Shown one piece after another: positions 11,644 through 30,837 of a stretch of 64,000 nt of DNA (its first letter is position 1; every line of letters begins with the position of its first letter). Both the position numbers and the translations under genes were made by a program. The notes under the pieces are model-generated. The model ran no database searches. It saw nothing but the letters and a program-made list of their open reading frames with translations, and was not told the DNA's origin. Source of the DNA: Clostridia bacterium (GTDB lineage Bacteria; Bacillota; Clostridia; Christensenellales; RUG350); the NCBI GenBank assembly GCA_017407285.1, contig JAFQWW010000015.1:1881-65880 (forward strand), read 5' to 3'.

Positions 11644-11672
11644 ATTATAATAACTTTAGTTATAAATGTCAA
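11644..11672 (-). promoter_or_regulatory. Sigma-70-type promoter of glnA with a palindrome in the spacer
   Basis: On the minus strand: TTGACA (11672-11667), a 17-bp spacer, then TATAAT (11649-11644). The spacer contains the palindrome ATAAC-TTTA-GTTAT (11650-11663). Confidence 0.6.
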
Positions 11673-21405: not shown

Positions 21406-21840
21406 TCACTTATTCACGTCTTTTGCTAGATATTCTATTGCTTCTATATATCCGTCAAAGCCTTTACCCATAATGGTTTTTTCCGCAAACTTTGATACGT
21501 AAGATATTTGACGGAAATCTTCACGTGACTTGACGTCGGAGATATGAACTTCCACTGTCTTTATGCCTACGGCTTTCAATGCGTCCAATATCGCGACACT
21601 CGTGTGCGTATACGCACCGGGGTTGATGACTATTCCATCAAACTGGCGATATGCTTTCTGGATATAGTCCACTATTTTTCCCTCGCTATTACTTTGTACG
21701 CATTTCACGGAAACGGAGGCTTTTTTTGCGCTTTTTTTGATATAGGATACGAGATCACGATAGGTATTTTTACCGTAAACGTCGGGTTCACGAATACCAA
21801 GCATATTGAGATTTACACCGTTAATTACTAGTATTTTCAT
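21406..21840 (-). CDS. aroQ: 3-dehydroquinate dehydratase, type II
   Basis: MKILVINGVNLNMLGIREPDVYG N-terminus and 144 aa. Confidence 0.95.
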   Translation of the reverse strand: MKILVINGVNLNMLGIREPDVYGKNTYRDLVSYIKKSAKKASVSVKCVQSNSEGKIVDYIQKAYRQFDGIVINPGAYTHTSVAILDALKAVGIKTVEVHISDVKSREDFRQISYVSKFAEKTIMGKGFDGYIEAIEYLAKDVNK

Positions 21841-23053
21841 ACAGCTCCTCCACTATTTTTCTTGCGACCTCGTCCACTGTATCGTCGTTCAATACCTCTA
21901 TATCGCAACTACTCTCGTATAATTCTTTTCTTTCCTCGTAAAGCGCTAAGACAGCGTTTTTATCACGGGACAACGGTCTACCGTTTTGAGCCAATTCATT
22001 TAGATCGCGTTTTATATATACCACCACGCCGTTTTGCTTAGCACATTTCACGTTTTCCGCGCGTTTTATCGCGCCACCGCCCAATGAGAGAATCTGACCT
22101 CTTTCCTTAGAAAAATCCGATATAACTTCGCTCTCCGTTTTTCTAAAGTCGTCCTCGCCAAATTTCTCAAATATCCGAGGTATGCTCATACCCCGTCTTT
22201 TAACGATTTCTTCGTCCGTATCCACGAACTTTTTGCCCAATAGTAAGGCAAGTTTTTTACCCACGGTACTCTTTCCGCACCCCGGCATACCTATTAAAAC
22301 GACGTTCTCGAAGTTTTTCTTCAAATCGCTATATACCCTTTCTATTATATCCTCACTGCCCTCTTCTTGGAAGAACAAATCTTTAGCATACTTGGCTTGC
22401 GCCACGAGCATTTTAAGTCCGTTACTGTAGGATAGTCCTCGCTCTTCCGCTTGAATTATGATATCGGTTTTAAGAGGATTGTATATAGGATCAAATACCC
22501 CCGATAAATTTTTAAATTTTGCAAGATCCAACACCCTCTCTCCGTTCTTTGGATACATTCCAACCGGTGTGGTGTTTATCACAATATCAACGTCGTAATC
22601 GTAGCAGTTTGAGTAATTCACCTCGCCCGATCTCGACACGACAACGATATCTTTAGCCCCACGCATTTTACACAAATATCTTGCAGTCAAACTCGTGCCA
22701 CCCGAACCTAATATCATAACCTTTTTCCCAAAAAGCGTGATATTTGCTCTAGCCATAGCGTAGTCCATACCCAAGACGTCGGTATTGTATCCGTACGTTT
22801 TGCCACTACGTCTAACCACCGTATTGACCGCGCCTATTGCTTTTGCGGTGTCGTCCACGTAATCCAAGTACTCCATTACGATCTTTTTGTAAGGAATGGT
22901 AACGTTAAATCCGTCGTATTCCCCACCTCTTACAAAAGATTCGACCTCGTCTGCGCCCAATTCCACCAAGTCGTAATCGTAACCGAACCTCTCGTGAATA
23001 TCTTTAGACAAACTGTGTCCGAGTTTTTCGCCAATAAGACAATACTTTGCCAT
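21821..23053 (-). CDS. aroE: Bifunctional shikimate dehydrogenase / shikimate kinase (AroE-AroK fusion)
   Basis: N-terminal AroE motifs (LIGEKLGHSLSKDIHERFG; VMILGSGGTSLTARY) and a C-terminal AroK P-loop (VVLIGMPGCGKSTVGKKLA...VDTDEEI) in one 410-aa ORF. Confidence 0.9.
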   Translation of the reverse strand: MAKYCLIGEKLGHSLSKDIHERFGYDYDLVELGADEVESFVRGGEYDGFNVTIPYKKIVMEYLDYVDDTAKAIGAVNTVVRRSGKTYGYNTDVLGMDYAMARANITLFGKKVMILGSGGTSLTARYLCKMRGAKDIVVVSRSGEVNYSNCYDYDVDIVINTTPVGMYPKNGERVLDLAKFKNLSGVFDPIYNPLKTDIIIQAEERGLSYSNGLKMLVAQAKYAKDLFFQEEGSEDIIERVYSDLKKNFENVVLIGMPGCGKSTVGKKLALLLGKKFVDTDEEIVKRRGMSIPRIFEKFGEDDFRKTESEVISDFSKERGQILSLGGGAIKRAENVKCAKQNGVVVYIKRDLNELAQNGRPLSRDKNAVLALYEERKELYESSCDIEVLNDDTVDEVARKIVEELYENTSN

Positions 23054-24195
23054 TATTTAACCTCGCTATAACTACCCAAGAAAATGAAATCTTGCGCTTC
23101 GTTGTCGAGTTCTCCTATAAGATTTAGTACTTGCTTGTCTTGAACGTTTGCCTCGAAATCAAAGTAGAACATAAATTCAAAACTCGTGTTTTCCAAAGGT
23201 CTAGATTCAAGTTTGGTAAGGTTTAGGTTTAGTGTGGAGAATTTATTCAATATCTTATTCAATCTTCCAGCCTCGTGAGATACGGTCATCATGATAGATA
23301 TTCTATCTGCTCCCTCGAAAATCTCCAAATTCTTACTAATACAAATAAATCTCGTGTAGTTGTTGTCCGCGCTTTGGATATTGCTCTTCAAGCACTCCAA
23401 ATCGTATATTCCCATACATTCCTTGCTACAAATGCACGCAATATCCATTCTATCGCTCTCGGCTACCATTTTTGCAGCAATAGCAGTGTTCGCGCAAGTC
23501 GTGATCTTAACGTTATCGCCCAAAGTTTTCAAGAAAGGTTTGCATTGATTTATTGCTTGCTCGTGAGAAATAATCTCCTTAACACCCTCAAGTTTTACGC
23601 CACGTTTTGCAAGCAAACTGTGTTGAATACGGAGTTTTATGCTACGCACAATGTGGAAATTATGCTCCTTCATCAAGTCGTATACGGCATTTACCGAACC
23701 TGCTATGCTATTTTCAATAGGCAATACGCCGTATTTGCAAAGTCCTTTTTCTACCGCGCTAAATACACCCTCGAAATTTTTGAAATACATAATATTGGAC
23801 AAGGTAAAGAGTTTTTCGCACGCTATATTAGAATACGCACCGTCTATTCCTTGACACGCAACGTTTGCTTTCACGGGAAACTCCGCTACACCACGAGACA
23901 AAACTTCGGCTATTTTATCACGAGCCGGGGAAGAACCGTCAATGTAGCGAAGTTGATACGCTTTGCTCGTTTCAAACAAGGTCTCGAAAACTTGCTTGGT
24001 GTAACCTTTCAAATCGTCCTCAACCTTTTCGGTCACGCGATTTAGAACTTCTTTTTCTCTTTTTGAGTTAGCAACGCCCTTGCCATCTTTATTCTTCTGC
24101 TCCGCAATTTCTTTGGAGATAGCCATTCTTTTTAGGTATAAATCCACTATACCGTCGTCAATCTCGTCTATCTTTTGTCTCAAATCTTCCAACAT
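23053..24195 (-). CDS. pheA: Chorismate mutase / prephenate dehydratase (P-protein)
   Basis: An N-terminal CM helix pair (LRQKIDEIDDGIVDLYLKRMAISKEIAEQK), then a PDT domain and a C-terminal ACT-like region. 380 aa. Confidence 0.9.
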   Translation of the reverse strand: MLEDLRQKIDEIDDGIVDLYLKRMAISKEIAEQKNKDGKGVANSKREKEVLNRVTEKVEDDLKGYTKQVFETLFETSKAYQLRYIDGSSPARDKIAEVLSRGVAEFPVKANVACQGIDGAYSNIACEKLFTLSNIMYFKNFEGVFSAVEKGLCKYGVLPIENSIAGSVNAVYDLMKEHNFHIVRSIKLRIQHSLLAKRGVKLEGVKEIISHEQAINQCKPFLKTLGDNVKITTCANTAIAAKMVAESDRMDIACICSKECMGIYDLECLKSNIQSADNNYTRFICISKNLEIFEGADRISIMMTVSHEAGRLNKILNKFSTLNLNLTKLESRPLENTSFEFMFYFDFEANVQDKQVLNLIGELDNEAQDFIFLGSYSEVK

Positions 24196-24196
24196 T

Positions 24197-25300
24197 TCAA
24201 ATTCCCTTCCTTTTACTCAATATCGTATCGTATACTACTAAATTTACCGCACTTTCCACGCCTACTACCGCTCTCGTCACGATACACGCGTCGTGTCTGC
24301 CACCTATTTTTATCACTACGTTTTCTCCACTTTCAAGATTTACCGTTTCTTGTTCTTTGGAGATAGACGGAGTGGGCTTAAAGGCTACTCTCATCGTCAT
24401 ATCCATTCCGTTTGAAATACCGCCGTTTATGCCACCGTTATTATTCGTCTTGGTAACAACCTTTCCGTTTTCAAACCTAAAGGCGTCGTTAGCAAAACTT
24501 CCTCTCATCTTGGATATATCGAATCCTGCTCCAAACTCTACGCCTTTGACTGCGGGTATGGAATACAAAAATCCTGCAAGTCGTCCTTCCATGCCTCCCG
24601 TTAGTTCGCCACCAAGTCCAGTAGGCAAACCAAACGCGATACACTCCACGACTCCACCTACCGAATCTCCGTCCAATCTAGCGTTTATTATCTCGCTTTC
24701 CATATCTTCGCGGTTAGATAGAGTCAAAAAGGATTTATCCTCTACGCCGTCGATATCTGAAATGGTTATTTTAGAGTCTTTATAACTTTTACCTTTTACG
24801 CCTGCTATCTCGCCTATATACGCACGAACCTCCACGCCTTCACGAGATAATATTTGCTTTGCTATACCGCCTGCTATACAGTGCATCAAGGTCAGTCTAC
24901 CCGAAAATCTTCCGCCACCTCTCAAATCCACCTTATCTCCGTACTTGCAAAGCGCGGTATAATCGGCATGAGAAGGTCTTGGGGTGTGTTTCAAACTCTC
25001 GTAATCACGAGAATTGTTCACCTTGTTTTTAACGGTAACTACGATATCTCCCACAACCGTACCTATTCTTTTTCCCGAAGAATTATCGATATCGAAGCCC
25101 GAGGTAAATAACAATTCGTCCGCCTCTCGTCTTGGTGTCGTGAGAGTGGGGTTGTTGCTACGACGTCTATCACAATAAGCTTGCAACTCGTCTAAATCGA
25201 TTTTCTCCCCTATCTCAACACCTTTCAAGGTAGTTACGATTTCCTCGCTATGGGACGCACCGTCTACTTGAATAGATAGATTGTCAAAGAAGTTCAACAA
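24197..25300 (-). CDS. aroC: Chorismate synthase
   Basis: GGGRFSGRLT and GGRHDACIVTRA motifs. 367 aa. Operon context. Confidence 0.9.
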   Translation of the reverse strand: MLNFFDNLSIQVDGASHSEEIVTTLKGVEIGEKIDLDELQAYCDRRRSNNPTLTTPRREADELLFTSGFDIDNSSGKRIGTVVGDIVVTVKNKVNNSRDYESLKHTPRPSHADYTALCKYGDKVDLRGGGRFSGRLTLMHCIAGGIAKQILSREGVEVRAYIGEIAGVKGKSYKDSKITISDIDGVEDKSFLTLSNREDMESEIINARLDGDSVGGVVECIAFGLPTGLGGELTGGMEGRLAGFLYSIPAVKGVEFGAGFDISKMRGSFANDAFRFENGKVVTKTNNNGGINGGISNGMDMTMRVAFKPTPSISKEQETVNLESGENVVIKIGGRHDACIVTRAVVGVESAVNLVVYDTILSKRKGI

Positions 25301-26561
25301 TTCCTTTTCCTCCTAATTTTTCCAAATCCTCAAAAAACGCAGGATAGGACTTTTCAATAGCTTGCGCATCCGTCACGGTACAATTCATTCCGTTCGCTAT
25401 CGCCATAACGACGGCGCTCATAACTATTCTGTGGTCGTTATATCCCGAAATTTCACCCATAGGCAAGGTTTTAGCCCCGCCACCGTATATTTTCAATACG
25501 TTTTCGCTATATTCGTGTCCGACACCAAAAGCATCCATAATATCTTGCACTGCTTTTAGTCTATCGCTTTCCTTGATTTTGAGTCTGTCCACACCCTTTA
25601 TCTCGCTCTCACCACTCGCGCACGCGCAACAAACGGCAATGATAGGAATGAGATCGGGGATGTCGGTAGCATCTATTGAAAGACCTTTAAGATCGGATTT
25701 TTCAATCTTTACACCGTCACTCAATATCTCGATTTTAGCGCCCATATTTTGCAAAACGGATATTATTGCTCTATCTCCTTGCAAAGAGTTTGGGTTTAGT
25801 CCTTTGACCTTAACCTCGCCACTTAATGCGCCTAGTGCAAACAAAAATGCAGAAGAGGAGTAATCTCCCTCAACGCACACGTACTCTCGCTCAAGCTTTT
25901 TTGCGCCCACAACGTCATAACCGTATTCCGTCTTTTTTATATCCGCACCGAAAGATTGCAAGACGTCCAAAGTAATGTCTATATACCCAACGGACACTCT
26001 CTCTCCCTCTAGTTTTATCTGACTCTTTCCGTCTAGTAAACTAAGCGCACATAAAAGTCCCGTGACGTTTTGAGAACTTTGCGAGGCGTCCACGACGTAC
26101 TCCCCTGCCTCTAGTTTTCCTGAGAGTTTTACAGGGAGAGAATCACCCCCGACCTCTATACCGTGCGCTCGTAAAACGTCAAGCAAAAGTTTGATAGGTC
26201 TTTTTCTTAGCCCTTCTTTGCCGTCCACAGTGGCTTTAGCGCCAAGCGCGGATAGAACGGGCAAAAGAAAGCGCAAAGTCGAACCGCTCTCACGAGCAAA
26301 TACCGATACCTCTTTCCCGTCCACCTTTTTTCTGTCCACGGGGGTTACGATATACTCACCTTCTCCTACTTTCTCAAACTCTGCGCCCAAGGCGCGGAGC
26401 ACGTCCATCGTAGCGCTAATATCCTCGTTTAAGATAAGGTTACCGACCTTGACTTTGTCCCTTGAAAATGTCGCGCACAACAGTATACGATGAGCGTACG
26501 ACTTGGAAGGTGGAACGGTAATTTCGCCCTTTATTTGATTTGGAAAAGTTCTTACTTTCAT
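25284..26561 (-). CDS. aroA: 3-phosphoshikimate 1-carboxyvinyltransferase (EPSP synthase)
   Basis: PPSKSYAHRILLCA N-terminal motif and 425 aa. Operon context. Confidence 0.95.
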   Translation of the reverse strand: MKVRTFPNQIKGEITVPPSKSYAHRILLCATFSRDKVKVGNLILNEDISATMDVLRALGAEFEKVGEGEYIVTPVDRKKVDGKEVSVFARESGSTLRFLLPVLSALGAKATVDGKEGLRKRPIKLLLDVLRAHGIEVGGDSLPVKLSGKLEAGEYVVDASQSSQNVTGLLCALSLLDGKSQIKLEGERVSVGYIDITLDVLQSFGADIKKTEYGYDVVGAKKLEREYVCVEGDYSSSAFLFALGALSGEVKVKGLNPNSLQGDRAIISVLQNMGAKIEILSDGVKIEKSDLKGLSIDATDIPDLIPIIAVCCACASGESEIKGVDRLKIKESDRLKAVQDIMDAFGVGHEYSENVLKIYGGGAKTLPMGEISGYNDHRIVMSAVVMAIANGMNCTVTDAQAIEKSYPAFFEDLEKLGGKGIVELL

Positions 26562-27601
26562 CTTAAATACTTTTTGAGTTGGTCGAGTTTTATTTCCTTA
26601 AATTCGCATTTACCTATTTTTGCGATACTAACTATAGTTATCTTATCCCCACTGACTTTTTTATCTCGTCTCATGACCTCTATCATATCCTTTTTCTCAA
26701 AGGGAGAAGGAGTCATAAGTCCGTTGTTCTTCAAAAGTTTTTCCACCAAAATGCTCTCTGCGGTTGAAAGCCAACCTTGTTTTAGCGACACGTCTGCAAT
26801 AATTTTCAAGCCCATAGCCACGCATCTGCCGTGAGGAATGGTGTAATCGCTCAATTTTTCAATAGCGTGAGCAAAGGTGTGACCGAGGTTCAATATCTTT
26901 CTATATCCGCCCTCTTTTTCATCCTTTTCTACAACCGCTTTCTTGCTTTTTACGCAAAGTGCGCAGAATTTTTCAAGGTTTGCGTGAGATAAACCGTCCT
27001 TTACGAGTTCGTATATCTCGCCACCGTCCATAATAGCGTACTTTACGCCCTCGCCCAATCCGTTCAAATATTCCTTTTCAGGCAACGAGTCCAAAGTTTT
27101 TATATCAAAAACGACCTTGATAGGCTGATAAAAAGTACCAACAAGGTTTTTACCCGCCTTCAAATCTATCGCAGTCTTTCCACCAACCGAGGAATCAATA
27201 CCTGCAAGCAAAGTGGTAGGCGCTTGAACGTAACGGATACCGCGCATATAAGTGCTTGCGCAAAATCCCGTCAAATCTCCTACAACGCCACCGCCTAAAG
27301 CCAATAAAATATCCTTTCTTGAAAACTCGTTTTCGGCTAAAAAGTTTTGAATTTTTATAAAGGTTTCTACCGTTTTACTCTTTTCTCCGTTTTTGAAAAC
27401 AAAATTATAGGTGGTAAAACCTTCTTTTTCCAAACTATTTTTTACCGTTTCAAGATATTTGCCTGCGACTTTATTGTCCGTGATTATTCCTACCTTGCAA
27501 GGTTCTGCAATCTTTCTAATCTCCACGCCGATTTTATTTAACAAGTCTTTTCCTATAACTACTTCGTAATTCGTGGATGCTTTCACCTTAATACGTTGCA
27601 T
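26558..27601 (-). CDS. aroB: 3-dehydroquinate synthase
   Basis: LALGGGVVGDLTGFCASTYMRGIRYVQAPTTLLA motif and 347 aa. Confidence 0.95.
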   Translation of the reverse strand: MQRIKVKASTNYEVVIGKDLLNKIGVEIRKIAEPCKVGIITDNKVAGKYLETVKNSLEKEGFTTYNFVFKNGEKSKTVETFIKIQNFLAENEFSRKDILLALGGGVVGDLTGFCASTYMRGIRYVQAPTTLLAGIDSSVGGKTAIDLKAGKNLVGTFYQPIKVVFDIKTLDSLPEKEYLNGLGEGVKYAIMDGGEIYELVKDGLSHANLEKFCALCVKSKKAVVEKDEKEGGYRKILNLGHTFAHAIEKLSDYTIPHGRCVAMGLKIIADVSLKQGWLSTAESILVEKLLKNNGLMTPSPFEKKDMIEVMRRDKKVSGDKITIVSIAKIGKCEFKEIKLDQLKKYLR

Positions 27602-28477
27602 TTATTCTCCTTTGAATCCGGCGTCGTTCAATTTGCGGACTCTATTTTCCTCAACCTTATTCTTAATCTCGTTACCTTCGTTCAATAACGTCTTTACTCT
27701 TTCTTGGTCGCCCTCTTTTAAGGCTACCTTGATATCTTTAATGTTCTTCTCCAAGACTTCGAGTTGACTAACTAGATAATCTTTATTGTCTATCATGATC
27801 TCGGACCACATATCCGCGTTAATCTTTGCCACCCTCGTCATATCTCTAAAACTACCTGCCGAATATCCATAATGCTTTTCGGCAAGATCACTTTTAACGT
27901 ATGCGCTAGACACGATGTGAGCAAGTTGGGAGGTGTACGCTATCATCTCGTCGTGAACTTCGGGAGTCGTAATAACTATACGCTCCGCACCGATAGAGAG
28001 AAAGAACTTTTTGACTGCATATAAAACTTGAATTTCATTTTTTACAGGAGTTATAAGCACGGAACACTTTTCAAAAAGGGTGTGCGTGGCGTGTGATATA
28101 CCGCTAAATTCACGACCTGCCATAGGATGACCGCCCACGAATTCTAAGTTTGGGTATTCTTTTTTAAGTTCAATCATCTTATCGACGATTCGTCTTTTGT
28201 TACCACCGCAATCAACCACGATAGCTCCGTCACGCAAACAGCCTACCCATTCCTCAAGCGCCTTTTCTATCGCTCTTGGATATACGCAAATGACTAGAAT
28301 ATCGAGTTCTTTTGCATTCTCTTTGCACAAAACCTCGTCGTAAATCTCCAAAAGACGAGCTTTTTTCATAGTTTCTTCGTCTTTATCGTACACGAATACT
28401 CTATCTTGCGTTCTCTTTCGTATGGCTTTTGCTATTGAACCACCAATGAGTCCAAGTCCTATAATTCCTATATTCAT
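27602..28477 (-). CDS. tyrA: Prephenate dehydrogenase
   Basis: MNIGIIGLGLIGGSIAKAIRK Rossmann N-terminus and a HPMAGRE motif. 291 aa. Confidence 0.9.
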   Translation of the reverse strand: MNIGIIGLGLIGGSIAKAIRKRTQDRVFVYDKDEETMKKARLLEIYDEVLCKENAKELDILVICVYPRAIEKALEEWVGCLRDGAIVVDCGGNKRRIVDKMIELKKEYPNLEFVGGHPMAGREFSGISHATHTLFEKCSVLITPVKNEIQVLYAVKKFFLSIGAERIVITTPEVHDEMIAYTSQLAHIVSSAYVKSDLAEKHYGYSAGSFRDMTRVAKINADMWSEIMIDNKDYLVSQLEVLEKNIKDIKVALKEGDQERVKTLLNEGNEIKNKVEENRVRKLNDAGFKGE

Positions 28478-29490
28478 TATTTCCTCGTTTTATTTACCAA
28501 AGGTAAGATTACGTCTATCTTTTTAACTACTTCTTCAAACTGTTCAGGACGGAGAGATTGAGCGCCGTCACACAAAGCGCATTTAGGATTGTTGTGAACC
28601 TCTATCATAAGTCCGTCCGCACCTGCGCCAACCGACGCCATGGAAAGAGGCTCTACCAATCTGCTCAAACCAGATGCGTGAGAAGGATCAACTATAATAG
28701 GTAAGTGAGTCAATTCTTTAAGCAAAGGTATTGCGGACAAGTCAAGCGTGTTTCTAGTGTAAGACTCGAAAGTTCTAATACCTCTCTCGCACAAAATAAC
28801 CTCTTTATTACCCTCACTCATGATGTATTCTGCGCTCATCAACCATTCTTCAATGGTATTTGCAAGACCACGTTTTAAGAGTATAGGTTTTTGGAGTTTA
28901 CCAACCTCTTTTAATAATTCGAAGTTTTGCATATTTCTTGCGCCGATCTGAATAACGTCTACGTCACGGAACAAATCAATATGTTTTACGGACATAATCT
29001 CGGTAACGACGGGAAGTCCAACCTCACGTCCCGCTTTAATCAACAAATCCAAACCGTGCTCACGAAGACCTTGGAATGCGTACGGAGAGGTACGAGGCTT
29101 AAACGCACCGCCTCTCAACAAATTCGCACCTGCATCTTTTACGGCACGCGCAACCGCTATCATCTGTTCCTCGCTCTCGATAGAACAAGGACCTGCGATA
29201 AGTTGGAAATGTCCTCCGCCAAACTTGTGTCCTTTTACGTCCACGATAGTGTCTTCTGGGTGGAATTTTCTATTGGCGTCCTTGTACGGTTCTTGGATAC
29301 GCTTAACTGTGTCGACAATATCCAAAGAATACAACAAATCGATATCAACCTTTGTAGTATCACCGATAAGTCCCAAGATAATGCTGTTTTCGCCACGACT
29401 TTCGTGAACCTCAAGACCAAGACCTTTTATCCAATCGATAAGGTTCTCAAGTTGTTTTTCTTCATGTTCTTTTTTAACGACGACGATCAT
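28477..29490 (-). CDS. aroF: 3-deoxy-7-phosphoheptulonate (DAHP) synthase, type I-beta with an N-terminal ferredoxin-like regulatory domain
   Basis: 337 aa. An N-terminal ~70-aa extra domain (MIVVVKKEHEEK...GLIGD) precedes a KDO8PS-like barrel (LIAGPCSIES, GAFKPRTSPY). AGGAG RBS. Confidence 0.9.
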   Translation of the reverse strand: MIVVVKKEHEEKQLENLIDWIKGLGLEVHESRGENSIILGLIGDTTKVDIDLLYSLDIVDTVKRIQEPYKDANRKFHPEDTIVDVKGHKFGGGHFQLIAGPCSIESEEQMIAVARAVKDAGANLLRGGAFKPRTSPYAFQGLREHGLDLLIKAGREVGLPVVTEIMSVKHIDLFRDVDVIQIGARNMQNFELLKEVGKLQKPILLKRGLANTIEEWLMSAEYIMSEGNKEVILCERGIRTFESYTRNTLDLSAIPLLKELTHLPIIVDPSHASGLSRLVEPLSMASVGAGADGLMIEVHNNPKCALCDGAQSLRPEQFEEVVKKIDVILPLVNKTRK

Positions 29491-29502
29491 AATATACTCC
29501 TA

Positions 29503-29530
29503 ACAAAAAACCGCCCTATTCGAGCGGTTT
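29503..29530 (-). terminator. Attenuator terminator between the leader peptide and aroF
   Basis: Minus-strand RNA: AACCGCUC-GAAUA-GGGCGGUU followed by U6, located 49 nt after the leader stop and 13 nt before the aroF RBS. Confidence 0.8.
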
Positions 29531-29578
29531 AAAATAATTTAGTCTAATATGAGAAAAGAATTTTTAACCGCGACAAAA

Positions 29579-29650
29579 TTACAGGCTATTAAAGTAATAG
29601 TCTGCAAAATAAAAGTATGCAAAATTCTGTGCGTTAAAAGTCTTTTTCAT
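29579..29650 (-). CDS. Aromatic-operon leader peptide (23 aa, Phe/Tyr-rich)
   Basis: ATG at 29650 with an AAGGTGA RBS 5 nt upstream. Translation is MKKTFNAQNFAYFYFADYYFNSL*, with 5 Phe and 4 Tyr, 8 of them within an 11-residue stretch. It lies between a consensus promoter and a terminator. Confidence 0.8.
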   Translation of the reverse strand: MKKTFNAQNFAYFYFADYYFNSL

Positions 29651-29668
29651 AGTTTCACCTTGTAAATA

Positions 29669-29698
29669 ATTATATTCCTCATCACAACGCGTTGTCAA
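29669..29698 (-). promoter_or_regulatory. Sigma-70-type promoter of the aromatic operon
   Basis: On the minus strand: TTGACA (29698-29693), an 18-bp spacer, then TATAAT (29674-29669). Confidence 0.7.
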
Positions 29699-29710
29699 GT
29701 ATTTATATTA

Positions 29711-29750
29711 AAAAAATCCCTATTTTCCTATTTTTTTTGAGGGAAATAGG
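29711..29750 (-). terminator. Rho-independent terminator of the upstream transcription unit
   Basis: Minus-strand CCUAUUUCCC / GGAAAAUAGG stem (one mismatch) followed by a U7 run. It overlaps the last codons of the methyltransferase gene. Confidence 0.55.
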
Positions 29751-30837
29751 TGTAAATCCTACACAAAAGTTTGGCGTTATACACCTTTCTTTCGCGATCT
29801 GCAGACCTTGCAAAAAGTCTCTCAAATTGCGGACAACTCGTAATGACGTTTGCGCCCCAATCTTTAAGAGATCTAAACACCCGACCAAAGTCCCGATACA
29901 AAACCTCTATCTCTTCTTTCGTACCCAATCTCTCACCATACGGAGGGTTAGCAAATATCATACCACCCTCGTAACGAGAAGAGATATTTCTCATATCTTG
30001 GGTTTCGAAATGTATATATTTTTCTAGTCCAAACTCTTTTGCCGATTGGTATGCAATACCTATAGCCTTACCTTTTATATCAAAGCCGGATATTCTAACC
30101 TTTTTATCCCACTCAATCCCGTCTTTTGCAATCTGCTTTTCTTCCTTTAGGATATTTGAGTCAATAAAAGGATACTTTTCAAAAGCAAACTCGCGAAAAT
30201 ACCCAGACGGAATAGACAACGCTCTCATACAGCACTCAATAGGAAAGGTCCCCGATCCTGTGAAAGGATCTATAACCGCTCTATCTCCTCTCCAACCCGA
30301 CAATTCAATGATTCCCGATGCTAAAGTTTCCTTGATAGGCGCTTCCCAAACGAGTTTTCTATACCCTCTTTTGTGTAAACCTGCGCCAGACGTGTCTAAA
30401 GATATCGTTACCTCGTCACGCAAAACGTTTACCTCAACACAAAATCTATCTCCGTCTTCAGGAAGAGAGGGATAGGTTTTAAGCATTACGTTGACTATTG
30501 CCTTTTTGGTAATACTTTGAATGGAAGATAGCGCAAACAACGTACTTTTAATGCTCTTTGCGTTCACTGCGATAAATCCGTTACGAGGCAAATAATTTGC
30601 CCAATCTATCTCGCTCACTCCGTCAAACAATTCGTCAAAGGTCGTGGCGGTAAATTTTTTAAGTGTTATAAGCACTCTATCCGCCGTACGTAAATGCAAG
30701 TTGAGGGAAACTATATCACGACTATCTCCCTTCAACTCAAACCTACCGTCGATACACGGTGCGTCGTAGCCTAAACGTTTGAGTTCGAGTTTGGTCGCGG
30801 TTTCCATTCCAAAACCACAAGCAACTTGAATTTCCAT
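29728..30837 (-). CDS. THUMP-domain class I SAM-dependent RNA methyltransferase (RlmL/YpsC-like, COG0116)
   Basis: DPFTGSGTFPIE (SAM motif I) and FANPPYGERLG (motif IV NPPY), with an N-terminal THUMP-like region. 369 aa. Confidence 0.85.
   Translation of the reverse strand: MEIQVACGFGMETATKLELKRLGYDAPCIDGRFELKGDSRDIVSLNLHLRTADRVLITLKKFTATTFDELFDGVSEIDWANYLPRNGFIAVNAKSIKSTLFALSSIQSITKKAIVNVMLKTYPSLPEDGDRFCVEVNVLRDEVTISLDTSGAGLHKRGYRKLVWEAPIKETLASGIIELSGWRGDRAVIDPFTGSGTFPIECCMRALSIPSGYFREFAFEKYPFIDSNILKEEKQIAKDGIEWDKKVRISGFDIKGKAIGIAYQSAKEFGLEKYIHFETQDMRNISSRYEGGMIFANPPYGERLGTKEEIEVLYRDFGRVFRSLKDWGANVITSCPQFERLFARSADRERKVYNAKLLCRIYTYFPQKK

Follow-up and report, generated by a model that had tools for sequence, protein, structure and literature searches.

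A putative phenylalanine- and tyrosine-sensing leader peptide upstream of an aromatic amino-acid operon in Clostridia

The biosynthesis of aromatic amino acids is encoded by an eight-gene operon on the minus strand of a 64-kb stretch of DNA from a Clostridia bacterium (contig JAFQWW010000015.1), hereafter called the window. The G+C content of the window is about 41-43%, and its nearest public relatives are uncultured Clostridia or Christensenellaceae-like metagenome-assembled genomes. Between the operon promoter and its first gene, aroF, lies a leader region containing a short open reading frame (ORF) rich in phenylalanine (Phe) and tyrosine (Tyr) codons, followed by an intrinsic terminator. 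An initial annotation, made from this sequence alone, had read the leader as a ribosome-mediated attenuator. Here, we describe the leader, its conservation among relatives and the alternative structures that it may form, and we compare it with known regulatory systems.

The leader region and its operon

The elements of the leader and the genes of the operon are collected in Table 1. The initial annotation had listed, in order along the minus strand, a promoter, a ribosome-binding site, a 23-codon ORF, a GCGGUU motif, a 35-nucleotide (nt) spacer, a terminator and the ribosome-binding site of aroF, and all of them are found as claimed.

The leader peptide, MKKTFNAQNFAYFYFADYYFNSL, contains five Phe, four Tyr and no tryptophan (Trp) residues in 23 codons, and eight of its nine aromatic residues are at positions 10-20. 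Within the 64-kb window, this is the sole ORF of such an aromatic kind that is preceded by a Shine-Dalgarno (SD) sequence. A scan of the window for other mini-ORFs having amino-acid runs, an SD sequence and a downstream T-run gave nothing credible. An alignment of the window's clade was made with six orthologues (AroF 83-97% identical to that of the window's clade; seven members), and in this alignment the core AYFYFA(D/G)YYF of the peptide is invariant.

The GCGGUU core of the segment called region 2 is located 7 nt past the stop codon and is followed by the 35-nt A/U-rich spacer and the terminator. The terminator stem (29530-29508) is made up of 9 base pairs, five of them G-C, with a loop of five nucleotides, and the T6 tract occupies 29510-29505. 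The interval first given for the terminator, 29530-29503, holds as regards the hairpin and the U6 tract; its end at 29503 is 2 nt past the U-tract, which is trivial. The aroF gene has an AGGAG SD sequence (29501-29497) and an ATG codon at 29490, about 17 nt from the U-tract. The promoter scan found no second promoter between the leader and aroF.

The promoter of the leader matches the consensus at 12 of 12 positions. In the clade alignment, its -35 and -10 hexamers are invariant and the intervening spacer is variable. From the usual distance of 6-8 nt to the -10 hexamer, transcription would start at about 29663-29661. Five perfect TTGACA-TATAAT promoters are present in the window vs. 0.06 expected from shuffles, which indicates that such promoters are real signals in this genome. 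The four others have TTGACA-N16-18-TATAAT at 988-1016, 11644-11672 and 57804-57833 on the minus strand and at 60769-60798 on the plus strand. The ORFs behind them are ordinary and long and, judged by their first residues only, resemble a LysR-type regulator, a glutamine synthetase, a secreted protein and an AraC-like protein. No leader ORF was found behind any of these four promoters in a scan of the window.

The eight genes of the operon (21406..29501) have neighbouring coding regions that abut or overlap. NCBIfam matches bear out the gene content that had been proposed, namely pheA, tyrA and the whole common pathway: all seven common-pathway steps are encoded, together with the Phe branch and the Tyr branch. 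Upstream of the leader are an rlmL-like methyltransferase gene and ychF. A weak hairpin, CCUAUUU.CCU...AGG.AAAUAGG, with a U7 tract (29711-29750, minus strand) overlaps the stop codon of the rlmL-like gene. Its fold is no better than that of shuffles (z = -1.0). It is probably the terminator of that gene, separating it from the aro promoter.

Table 1. Position of the leader elements and of the operon genes in the window
Feature	Coordinates	Strand	Remarks
-35 hexamer TTGACA	29693..29698	-	promoter of the leader and aro operon; unchanged across 7 close relatives
-10 hexamer TATAAT	29669..29674	-	18-nt spacer from the -35 hexamer
SD sequence AAGGTGA of the leader ORF	29655..29661	-	AAGGT kept in close relatives
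Leader peptide ORF MKKTFNAQNFAYFYFADYYFNSL and stop	29579..29650	-	ATG at 29650; UAA at 29581-29579
Region 1 UUUUAACGCACAGAAU, codons 4-9	29624..29639	-	predicted partner of region 2 (anti-antiterminator) in minimum free energy structures
Hairpin in the 3' half of the ORF, codons 15-24	29580..29606	-	UGCAGACUAUUACUUUAAUAGCCUGUA, -7.5 kcal/mol; AAUUUUGU comes next
Region 2 AUUUUGUCGCGGUUAAAA	29562..29579	-	core GCGGUU 29571-29566; strand common to the 1:2 helix and the 2:3 antiterminator
Region 3 UUUUAAACCGCUC	29522..29534	-	5' arm of the terminator and upstream U's; pairs with region 2 or region 4
Intrinsic terminator (3:4) AAACCGCUC-GAAUA-GGGCGGUUU and U-tract	29505..29530	-	-13.3 kcal/mol
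aroF, DAHP synthase, 337 amino acids	28477..29501 (including SD)	-	NCBIfam NF006421, 495 bits; first regulated gene
tyrA	27602-28477	-	NCBIfam match
aroB	26558-27601	-	NCBIfam match
aroA	25284-26561	-	NCBIfam match
aroC	24197-25300	-	NCBIfam match
pheA, chorismate mutase-prephenate dehydratase (CM-PDT) fusion	23053-24195	-	NCBIfam match
aroE-aroK fusion (shikimate dehydrogenase and shikimate kinase), one 410-amino-acid protein	21821-23053	-	NCBIfam match
aroQ	21406-21840	-	NCBIfam match

Conservation of the leader ORF among relatives

Eighty aroF orthologue loci, one per species-level genome, were collected and the 350 nt upstream of each gene were searched; 78 of them had enough sequence. A mini-ORF was retained if at least 7 aromatic residues occurred in a 12-residue window. 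Such an ORF is present in 65 of the 78 aroF upstream regions vs. 10 of 2,337 equal-sized control segments (0.4%) and 7 of 1,560 shuffles. The Phe/Tyr-rich, Trp-free leader of the initial annotation is conserved as a translated ORF in at least 70 species-level genomes. Among the 66 loci that were analysed further, the start codon is ATG in 65, an SD-like motif precedes the ORF in 54, and Lys is the second residue in 34. Of the 1,542 residues of the 66 peptides, 19.1% are Phe, 19.3% are Tyr and only one is Trp; the length and sequence of the peptides are otherwise free to vary. On the evidence of these sequences, the conserved property is the run of aromatic codons in a translated frame, not the sequence of the peptide.

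This composition matches the products of the operon, since both pheA and tyrA are encoded there. Nevertheless, a translation-dependent attenuator could in principle report general translation capacity (stringent response, ribosome availability) rather than Phe and Tyr, the aromatic codons then being a by-product of a U/A-rich RNA. The leader is indeed very A/U-rich, TTT and TAT codons are dominant, and part of the ORF is constrained as RNA, as seen from the invariant core and from an internal hairpin. However, F and Y swap freely between TTT/TTC and TAT/TAC, and aromatic richness is found only in the frame of the ATG codon and the SD sequence. Moreover, only 7 of 1,560 composition-matched shuffles score as high, Trp is excluded, and the enrichment is that expected from the pheA and tyrA products. 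We therefore regard a sensor of general translation as very unlikely.

The leader-bearing genomes are of gut and rumen Clostridia and include Christensenellales-like, Oscillospiraceae, Lachnospiraceae and Ruminococcus lineages. The cultured Butyrivibrio crossotus is among them; its leader, in L056, starts MGKFSFAVEYFYFYFINFFGKV. The order aroF-tyrA-aroB-aroA is retained in relatives, and the leader goes with that operon whatever the upstream gene. These data bear on the simplest alternative, a plain terminator of the upstream rlmL-like methyltransferase gene accompanied by a chance ORF. The element does sit in the intergenic region downstream of rlmL. However, a separate hairpin with a U7 tract, at about 29750-29711, probably ends rlmL, with a consensus promoter between that hairpin and the leader. 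The same leader occurs behind different upstream genes, and its ORF is conserved far above chance. Being contradicted by the conservation data, the plain terminator can practically be dismissed. A hairpin kept without the ORF in related genomes, which the initial annotation had named as the sign of such a terminator, was looked for and not seen. At three loci (L039, L041, and L042) the mini-ORF is missing, and the hairpin between promoter and aroF is missing too. The only terminator there is that of the upstream gene, and it lies ahead of a promoter and a short 5' untranslated region (5'-UTR). These three aroF operons have lost the attenuator as a whole.

The architecture of the leader varies among lineages. 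In the loci L043-L080, of the Oscillospiraceae, Lachnospiraceae and Ruminococcus type, the leaders are longer (27-42 amino acids) and have conserved tails, such as ..SAGxFCCxK.. or ..FAAxK.., after the aromatic run. In these loci, region 2 is inside the ORF, and UGCUGCA-type sequences pair with GCAG-containing terminator arms. Other leaders (L003-L006, L013, L016, L019, L024, L025, L027, L031, L035, and L048) form a subgroup that ends in a conserved (R/K)-P-Y(-C/F)-stop. As RNA, the codons of this tail (ARRCCAUAUU) imitate the 5' arm of the terminator, AUGACCGAUAUU, and are capable of pairing with region 2.

A further variation concerns the translation signals of the leader ORF. In six loci (L010, L011, L015, L017, L020, and L021), no SD sequence is found in the 50 nt examined before each leader ATG. 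The same six loci have a TTGACA hexamer followed, after 17-18 nt, by TATACT, TACACT or TAAACT ending exactly 6 nt before the ATG codon. Their leaders are probably translated from leaderless mRNAs, which would be unusual for an attenuator. Finally, three metagenome-assembled genomes carry taxonomic labels from outside the Firmicutes, L052 and L054 (labelled Treponema/Treponemataceae) and L068 (labelled Bacteroides). Their AroF proteins are 66-69% identical to that of the window, and L052 and L054 also bear an F/Y leader of the same kind. This suggests either mis-binning or horizontal transfer of the operon along with its attenuator.

The terminator/antiterminator switch and the proposed mechanism

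Every leader-bearing locus has a hairpin with a U-tract after the leader stop codon and before aroF; 66 of these were identified by an automated filter and four, with interrupted U-tracts, by inspection. Two subgroups were aligned separately; a joint MAFFT alignment misplaced the register of region 2. The terminator proposed for the window is conserved with compensatory changes. Indeed, in the 19-sequence alignment of subgroup A, 96% of its positions are paired, six pairs are changed on both sides, and none of 500 shuffles is as good. For the antiterminator, the same alignment gives 94.8% pairing vs. 31-57% when its partner is slid, with both sides changed in three of its pairs.

Pairing between the segment following the stop codon and the terminator 5' arm was also evaluated locus by locus. 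A 36-nt window around and after the stop codon was matched with the terminator 5' arm of its own locus or with those of other loci, and significance was obtained by permutation. This restricted window replaced an earlier duplex test with a long search window, which was noisy (median rank 0.16). For the 66 loci, the post-stop segment fits its own 5' arm over those of other loci (z = -6.1, 0/20,000). For 20 loci with mutually unrelated arms, the pairing is still specific (z = -3.5, 11/20,000). Distant variants keep the pairing with wholly different sequences, as in L040 (GGCUC/GAGCC) and L070 (CCCAU/GUGGG).

Within the window's clade, region 2 and the two arms of the terminator vary in concert. 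In the order region 2/5' arm/3' arm, the sequences are GCGGUU/AACCGC/GCGGUU in the window vs. GUGGUU/AACCAC/GUGGUU in L082 and L084, and L083 is intermediate, with a G.U pair in the terminator. Such a three-way change is predicted by a switch between a 2:3 and a 3:4 helix. Hence, the idea that GCGGUU and AACCGC form an antiterminator exclusive with the terminator gains support from covariation both across distant loci and, three-way, in the window's clade.

The distance between the stop codon and region 2 is also constrained. In 7/7 clade members, 2-7 nt separate the stop codon from the start of region 2, although the stop codon is shifted by 6 nt in three of them; in most of subgroup A, the distance is 0-8 nt. 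In distant lineages with longer leader ORFs, region 2 is partly within the ORF tail. This spacing would permit a ribosome at the stop codon to occlude region 2.

The covariation is difficult to reconcile with an independent small-protein gene, which would encode a hydrophobic aromatic micropeptide and have its own terminator. Expression of aroF would then depend on constitutive leaky read-through, with region 2 being complementary to the terminator arm by accident. Good translation signals on the ORF agree with such a gene, as do the peptide-like motifs of some subgroups, the (R/K)PY-stop and FCCxK tails. Nevertheless, the sequence and length of the peptide vary widely and its composition alone is conserved. 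The pairing is locus-specific, with three-way covariation of region 2, 5' arm and 3' arm. Besides, aroF is devoid of a promoter of its own, the ORF and the terminator are lost together, and the RNA of the conserved C-terminal codons imitates the 5' arm of the terminator. A micropeptide gene is thus highly improbable.

Folding of the window's leader is consistent with two competing structures. The whole leader RNA folds with an energy of -39.7 kcal/mol, better than shuffles (z = -3.3). The 2:3 antiterminator hairpin (-12.4 kcal/mol) and the 3:4 terminator (-13.3 kcal/mol) are nearly isoenergetic, as a kinetic switch would have it. In the unmasked full leader, corresponding to the absence of a ribosome, the predicted fold contains a 1:2 helix and the terminator. 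An imperfect pairing of codons 5-8 with the post-stop segment had been proposed; it is recovered, with codons 4-9, in the predicted minimum free energy structure, and such pairing is locus-specific across the family.

Nascent transcripts were then folded with a masked ribosome footprint, the size of which, 28 nt, is assumed. With codons 10-13 in the A site, the footprint extends over region 1 and the 2:3 helix forms. A ribosome that has the stop codon in its A site hides the G-C core of region 2, and the terminator alone can form. This masked fold and the conserved spacing agree with the earlier proposal that a ribosome reaching the stop codon occludes the antiterminator strand.

The 1:2 helix was examined across the family. 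The ORF is complementary to region 2 in a locus-specific manner (z = -3.5, 4/20,000; 66 loci), a modest effect. The position of the pairing differs by group: in the window's group it directly precedes the aromatic run, in L082 and L084 it is within the run (CGCAUAC with GUAUGUG), and in the (R/K)PY-stop subgroup it is at the very end of the ORF. The 1:2 helix fits an attenuator; it is weakly supported and would be the least secure part of the model. The hairpin in the 3' half of the ORF is maintained in L083 and L084 by wobble-compatible substitutions that alter the peptide (N to G or S), which suggests selection at the RNA level. It is possibly a pause or structural element.

Taken together, the conserved sequence elements, the spacing and the covariation between terminator and antiterminator make it highly probable that the leader is a real ribosome-mediated transcription attenuator sensing the supply of Phe and Tyr for the aromatic operon. 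The following sequence of events may be proposed, in which the positions of the ribosome, the folding order and the responsiveness to Phe and Tyr are predictions. Transcription would start from the consensus promoter and the 23-codon leader would be translated at once. If Phe-tRNA or Tyr-tRNA is scarce, the ribosome would stall in the F/Y run (codons 10-20). The stalled ribosome would cover or disrupt region 1 and leave region 2 (GCGGUUAAAA, 7 nt past the stop codon) free to pair with the terminator 5' arm UUUUAAACCGC once the latter is made. No terminator would form, and RNA polymerase would read into aroF-tyrA-aroB-aroA-aroC-pheA-aroEK-aroQ. If both amino acids are plentiful, the ribosome would reach the stop codon and mask the G-C core of region 2 with its footprint, so that the 3:4 terminator would form and transcription would end at the U-tract. 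In an untranslated leader, region 1 (codons 4-9) would pair with region 2 and the terminator would again form.

Four observations weigh against this mechanism as it stands. Firstly, the antiterminator is weaker in the nearest relatives L001 and L086, where GCGG and AAAA pair with a bulge (-7.3 to -9.5 kcal/mol). Secondly, a single footprint at codons 15-20 leaves region 1 uncovered in the window's version, in which case a second, queued ribosome or steric exclusion has to be invoked. Thirdly, the equilibrium fold favours the 1:2 helix with the terminator, so that antitermination would hinge on kinetics. Finally, the 1:2 hairpin of subgroup A, the (R/K)PY-stop subgroup, is 92% paired vs. 30-37% when slid, but it is invariant and shows zero compensatory changes.

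Two other modes of control were considered. Sensing of free Phe or Tyr by the nascent peptide, as in TnaC, was rejected on logic, since abundance of the amino acid would then turn a biosynthetic operon on. Translational control of aroF was likewise dismissed, as every predicted structure leaves the aroF SD sequence unpaired.

A more ambitious view, which we hold to be rather unlikely, is that of an ancient Clostridia family, spread over several orders, in which one dual Phe/Tyr leader is the main transcriptional control of the whole aromatic pathway. Lineages would have rewired it in their own ways, with region 1 before, inside or after the aromatic run and with six lineages apparently translating the leader from a leaderless mRNA. 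A peptide layer could be added, in which the (R/K)-P-Y-stop tail slows release and thereby holds the ribosome over region 2. The tail may be conserved at the peptide level or at the RNA level.

Relationships with known systems

In Firmicutes, aromatic and aminoacyl-tRNA genes are usually controlled by T-boxes. The leader was compared with the families of Rfam 15, using permissive E-values on 29300-29900; the whole window and 13 related loci were scanned at the gathering score. Neither the T-box (RF00230) nor the leu/phe leader (RF01743) gave a match at E <= 10 in 29300-29900, and neither reached the gathering score in the window; no T-box did so in the 13 related loci. Phe_leader (RF01859) scored 19.9 bits in the region vs. 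a gathering score of 55 (E = 0.93), and the generic terminator alone is aligned. The 64-kb window contains no Rfam family at gathering score, including tRNA, riboswitch, T-box and ribosomal-protein leader, and the 13 related loci, L039, L041, and L042 included, contain none that is relevant. Membership in the T-box, Phe_leader, leu/phe leader or riboswitch families was rejected on these scans. The leader itself contains no specifier loop and no T-box sequence, in agreement with the initial annotation, which had found no T-box features.

These scans also bear on a terminator switch controlled by a protein or a ligand (TRAP-like, PyrR-like, or riboswitch), which would read UAY/UUY triplets or the leader structure, the ORF being incidental. 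Such systems are frequent for aromatic genes of Firmicutes (PMC1262725), and the U/A-rich triplet repeats of the leader superficially resemble TRAP sites. However, no T-box, TRAP-related or riboswitch family of Rfam matches even weakly, and no complex fold is conserved beyond the alternative hairpins. In addition, the start codon, the SD sequence, the frame and the distance from stop codon to region 2 are conserved, and a non-translational mechanism needs none of these. A switch of this type is extremely improbable.

As a Phe/Tyr attenuator, the leader would represent a modest conceptual advance, the mechanism being a textbook one. The Phe/Tyr leader of the Clostridia aro operon is covered by no Rfam model, and cataloguing it would improve the annotation of mostly uncultured genomes. 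It would also explain how gut and rumen Clostridia set their output of aromatic amino acids, which is relevant to host-relevant aromatic metabolites. In addition, the leader would give a compact Phe/Tyr-responsive part for the engineering of anaerobes.

Leader peptides were regarded as exceptional in Firmicutes by earlier surveys. Amino-acid leader-peptide attenuation is held to be mainly proteobacterial or actinobacterial, Firmicutes relying on T-boxes, TRAP and riboswitches (PMC2965389; PMC1262725). The initial annotation, which called peptide-mediated attenuation uncommon in Firmicutes but not without precedent, is in line with both sources. A premature termination event was seen experimentally in the aroF 5'-UTR of Clostridioides difficile (bioRxiv 10.1101/2020.08.10.244764). 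The searchable full-text literature gave no account of a Phe/Tyr leader in front of the aro operons of Clostridia, which is not proof of absence.

The leader resembles the Escherichia coli pheL/pheA leader and the attenuators of the trp/his type, with a short ORF of cognate codons and alternative 1:2, 2:3, and 3:4 helices. As in pheL, region 2 is a few nucleotides past the stop codon and the intrinsic terminator is directly before the first biosynthetic gene. Unlike pheL, with which it has no sequence or structure homology, the leader would sense Phe and Tyr to the same extent and not Phe alone. Moreover, it precedes the whole common pathway and both terminal branches, and it belongs to Clostridia and not to gamma-proteobacteria.

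Leader-peptide attenuation of an aroF-containing operon with Phe and Tyr codons is also found in Corynebacterium glutamicum. According to the account given in PMC11802643, the aroR leader peptide upstream of aroF has a Phe-Tyr-Phe sequence, and a response to Phe, with none to Tyr, was reported for it (Neshat et al., 2014). Compared by that description, the actinobacterial aroR has only the Phe-Tyr-Phe triplet, whereas the Clostridia leaders have 7-11 aromatic codons.

The closest published description is that of the uORFC-13-1 motif, 24 sequences upstream of aroF from Acholeplasma and from unassigned environmental DNA (Brewer et al., 2021; PMC8632094). The motif comprises a promoter, a ribosome-binding site, an upstream ORF (uORF) with U runs coding for Phe ("at least one" Phe codon), an adjacent intrinsic terminator and an extra base-paired substructure (PMC8632094). 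By description only, the aroF context, the uORF with Phe codons and the adjacent terminator are common to both systems. Tyr sensing and an antiterminator, in contrast, are proposed for the Clostridia leader and are not part of the published motif (PMC8632094). To judge from the scan, uORFC-13-1 is absent from Rfam 15.

The leu/phe leader of Lactococcus (RF01743) is likewise an attenuator of the leader-peptide type in a Firmicute, with different genes and taxa. With T-box leaders (RF00230), the Clostridia leader would share the sensing of tRNA charging and the competition between terminator and antiterminator; unlike them, it would sense via the translating ribosome and not by direct binding of the tRNA. 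The mechanism is one already known from E. coli pheL, C. glutamicum aroR and Acholeplasma uORFC-13-1, and the Clostridia leaders apparently form a widespread and uncatalogued family present in several orders.

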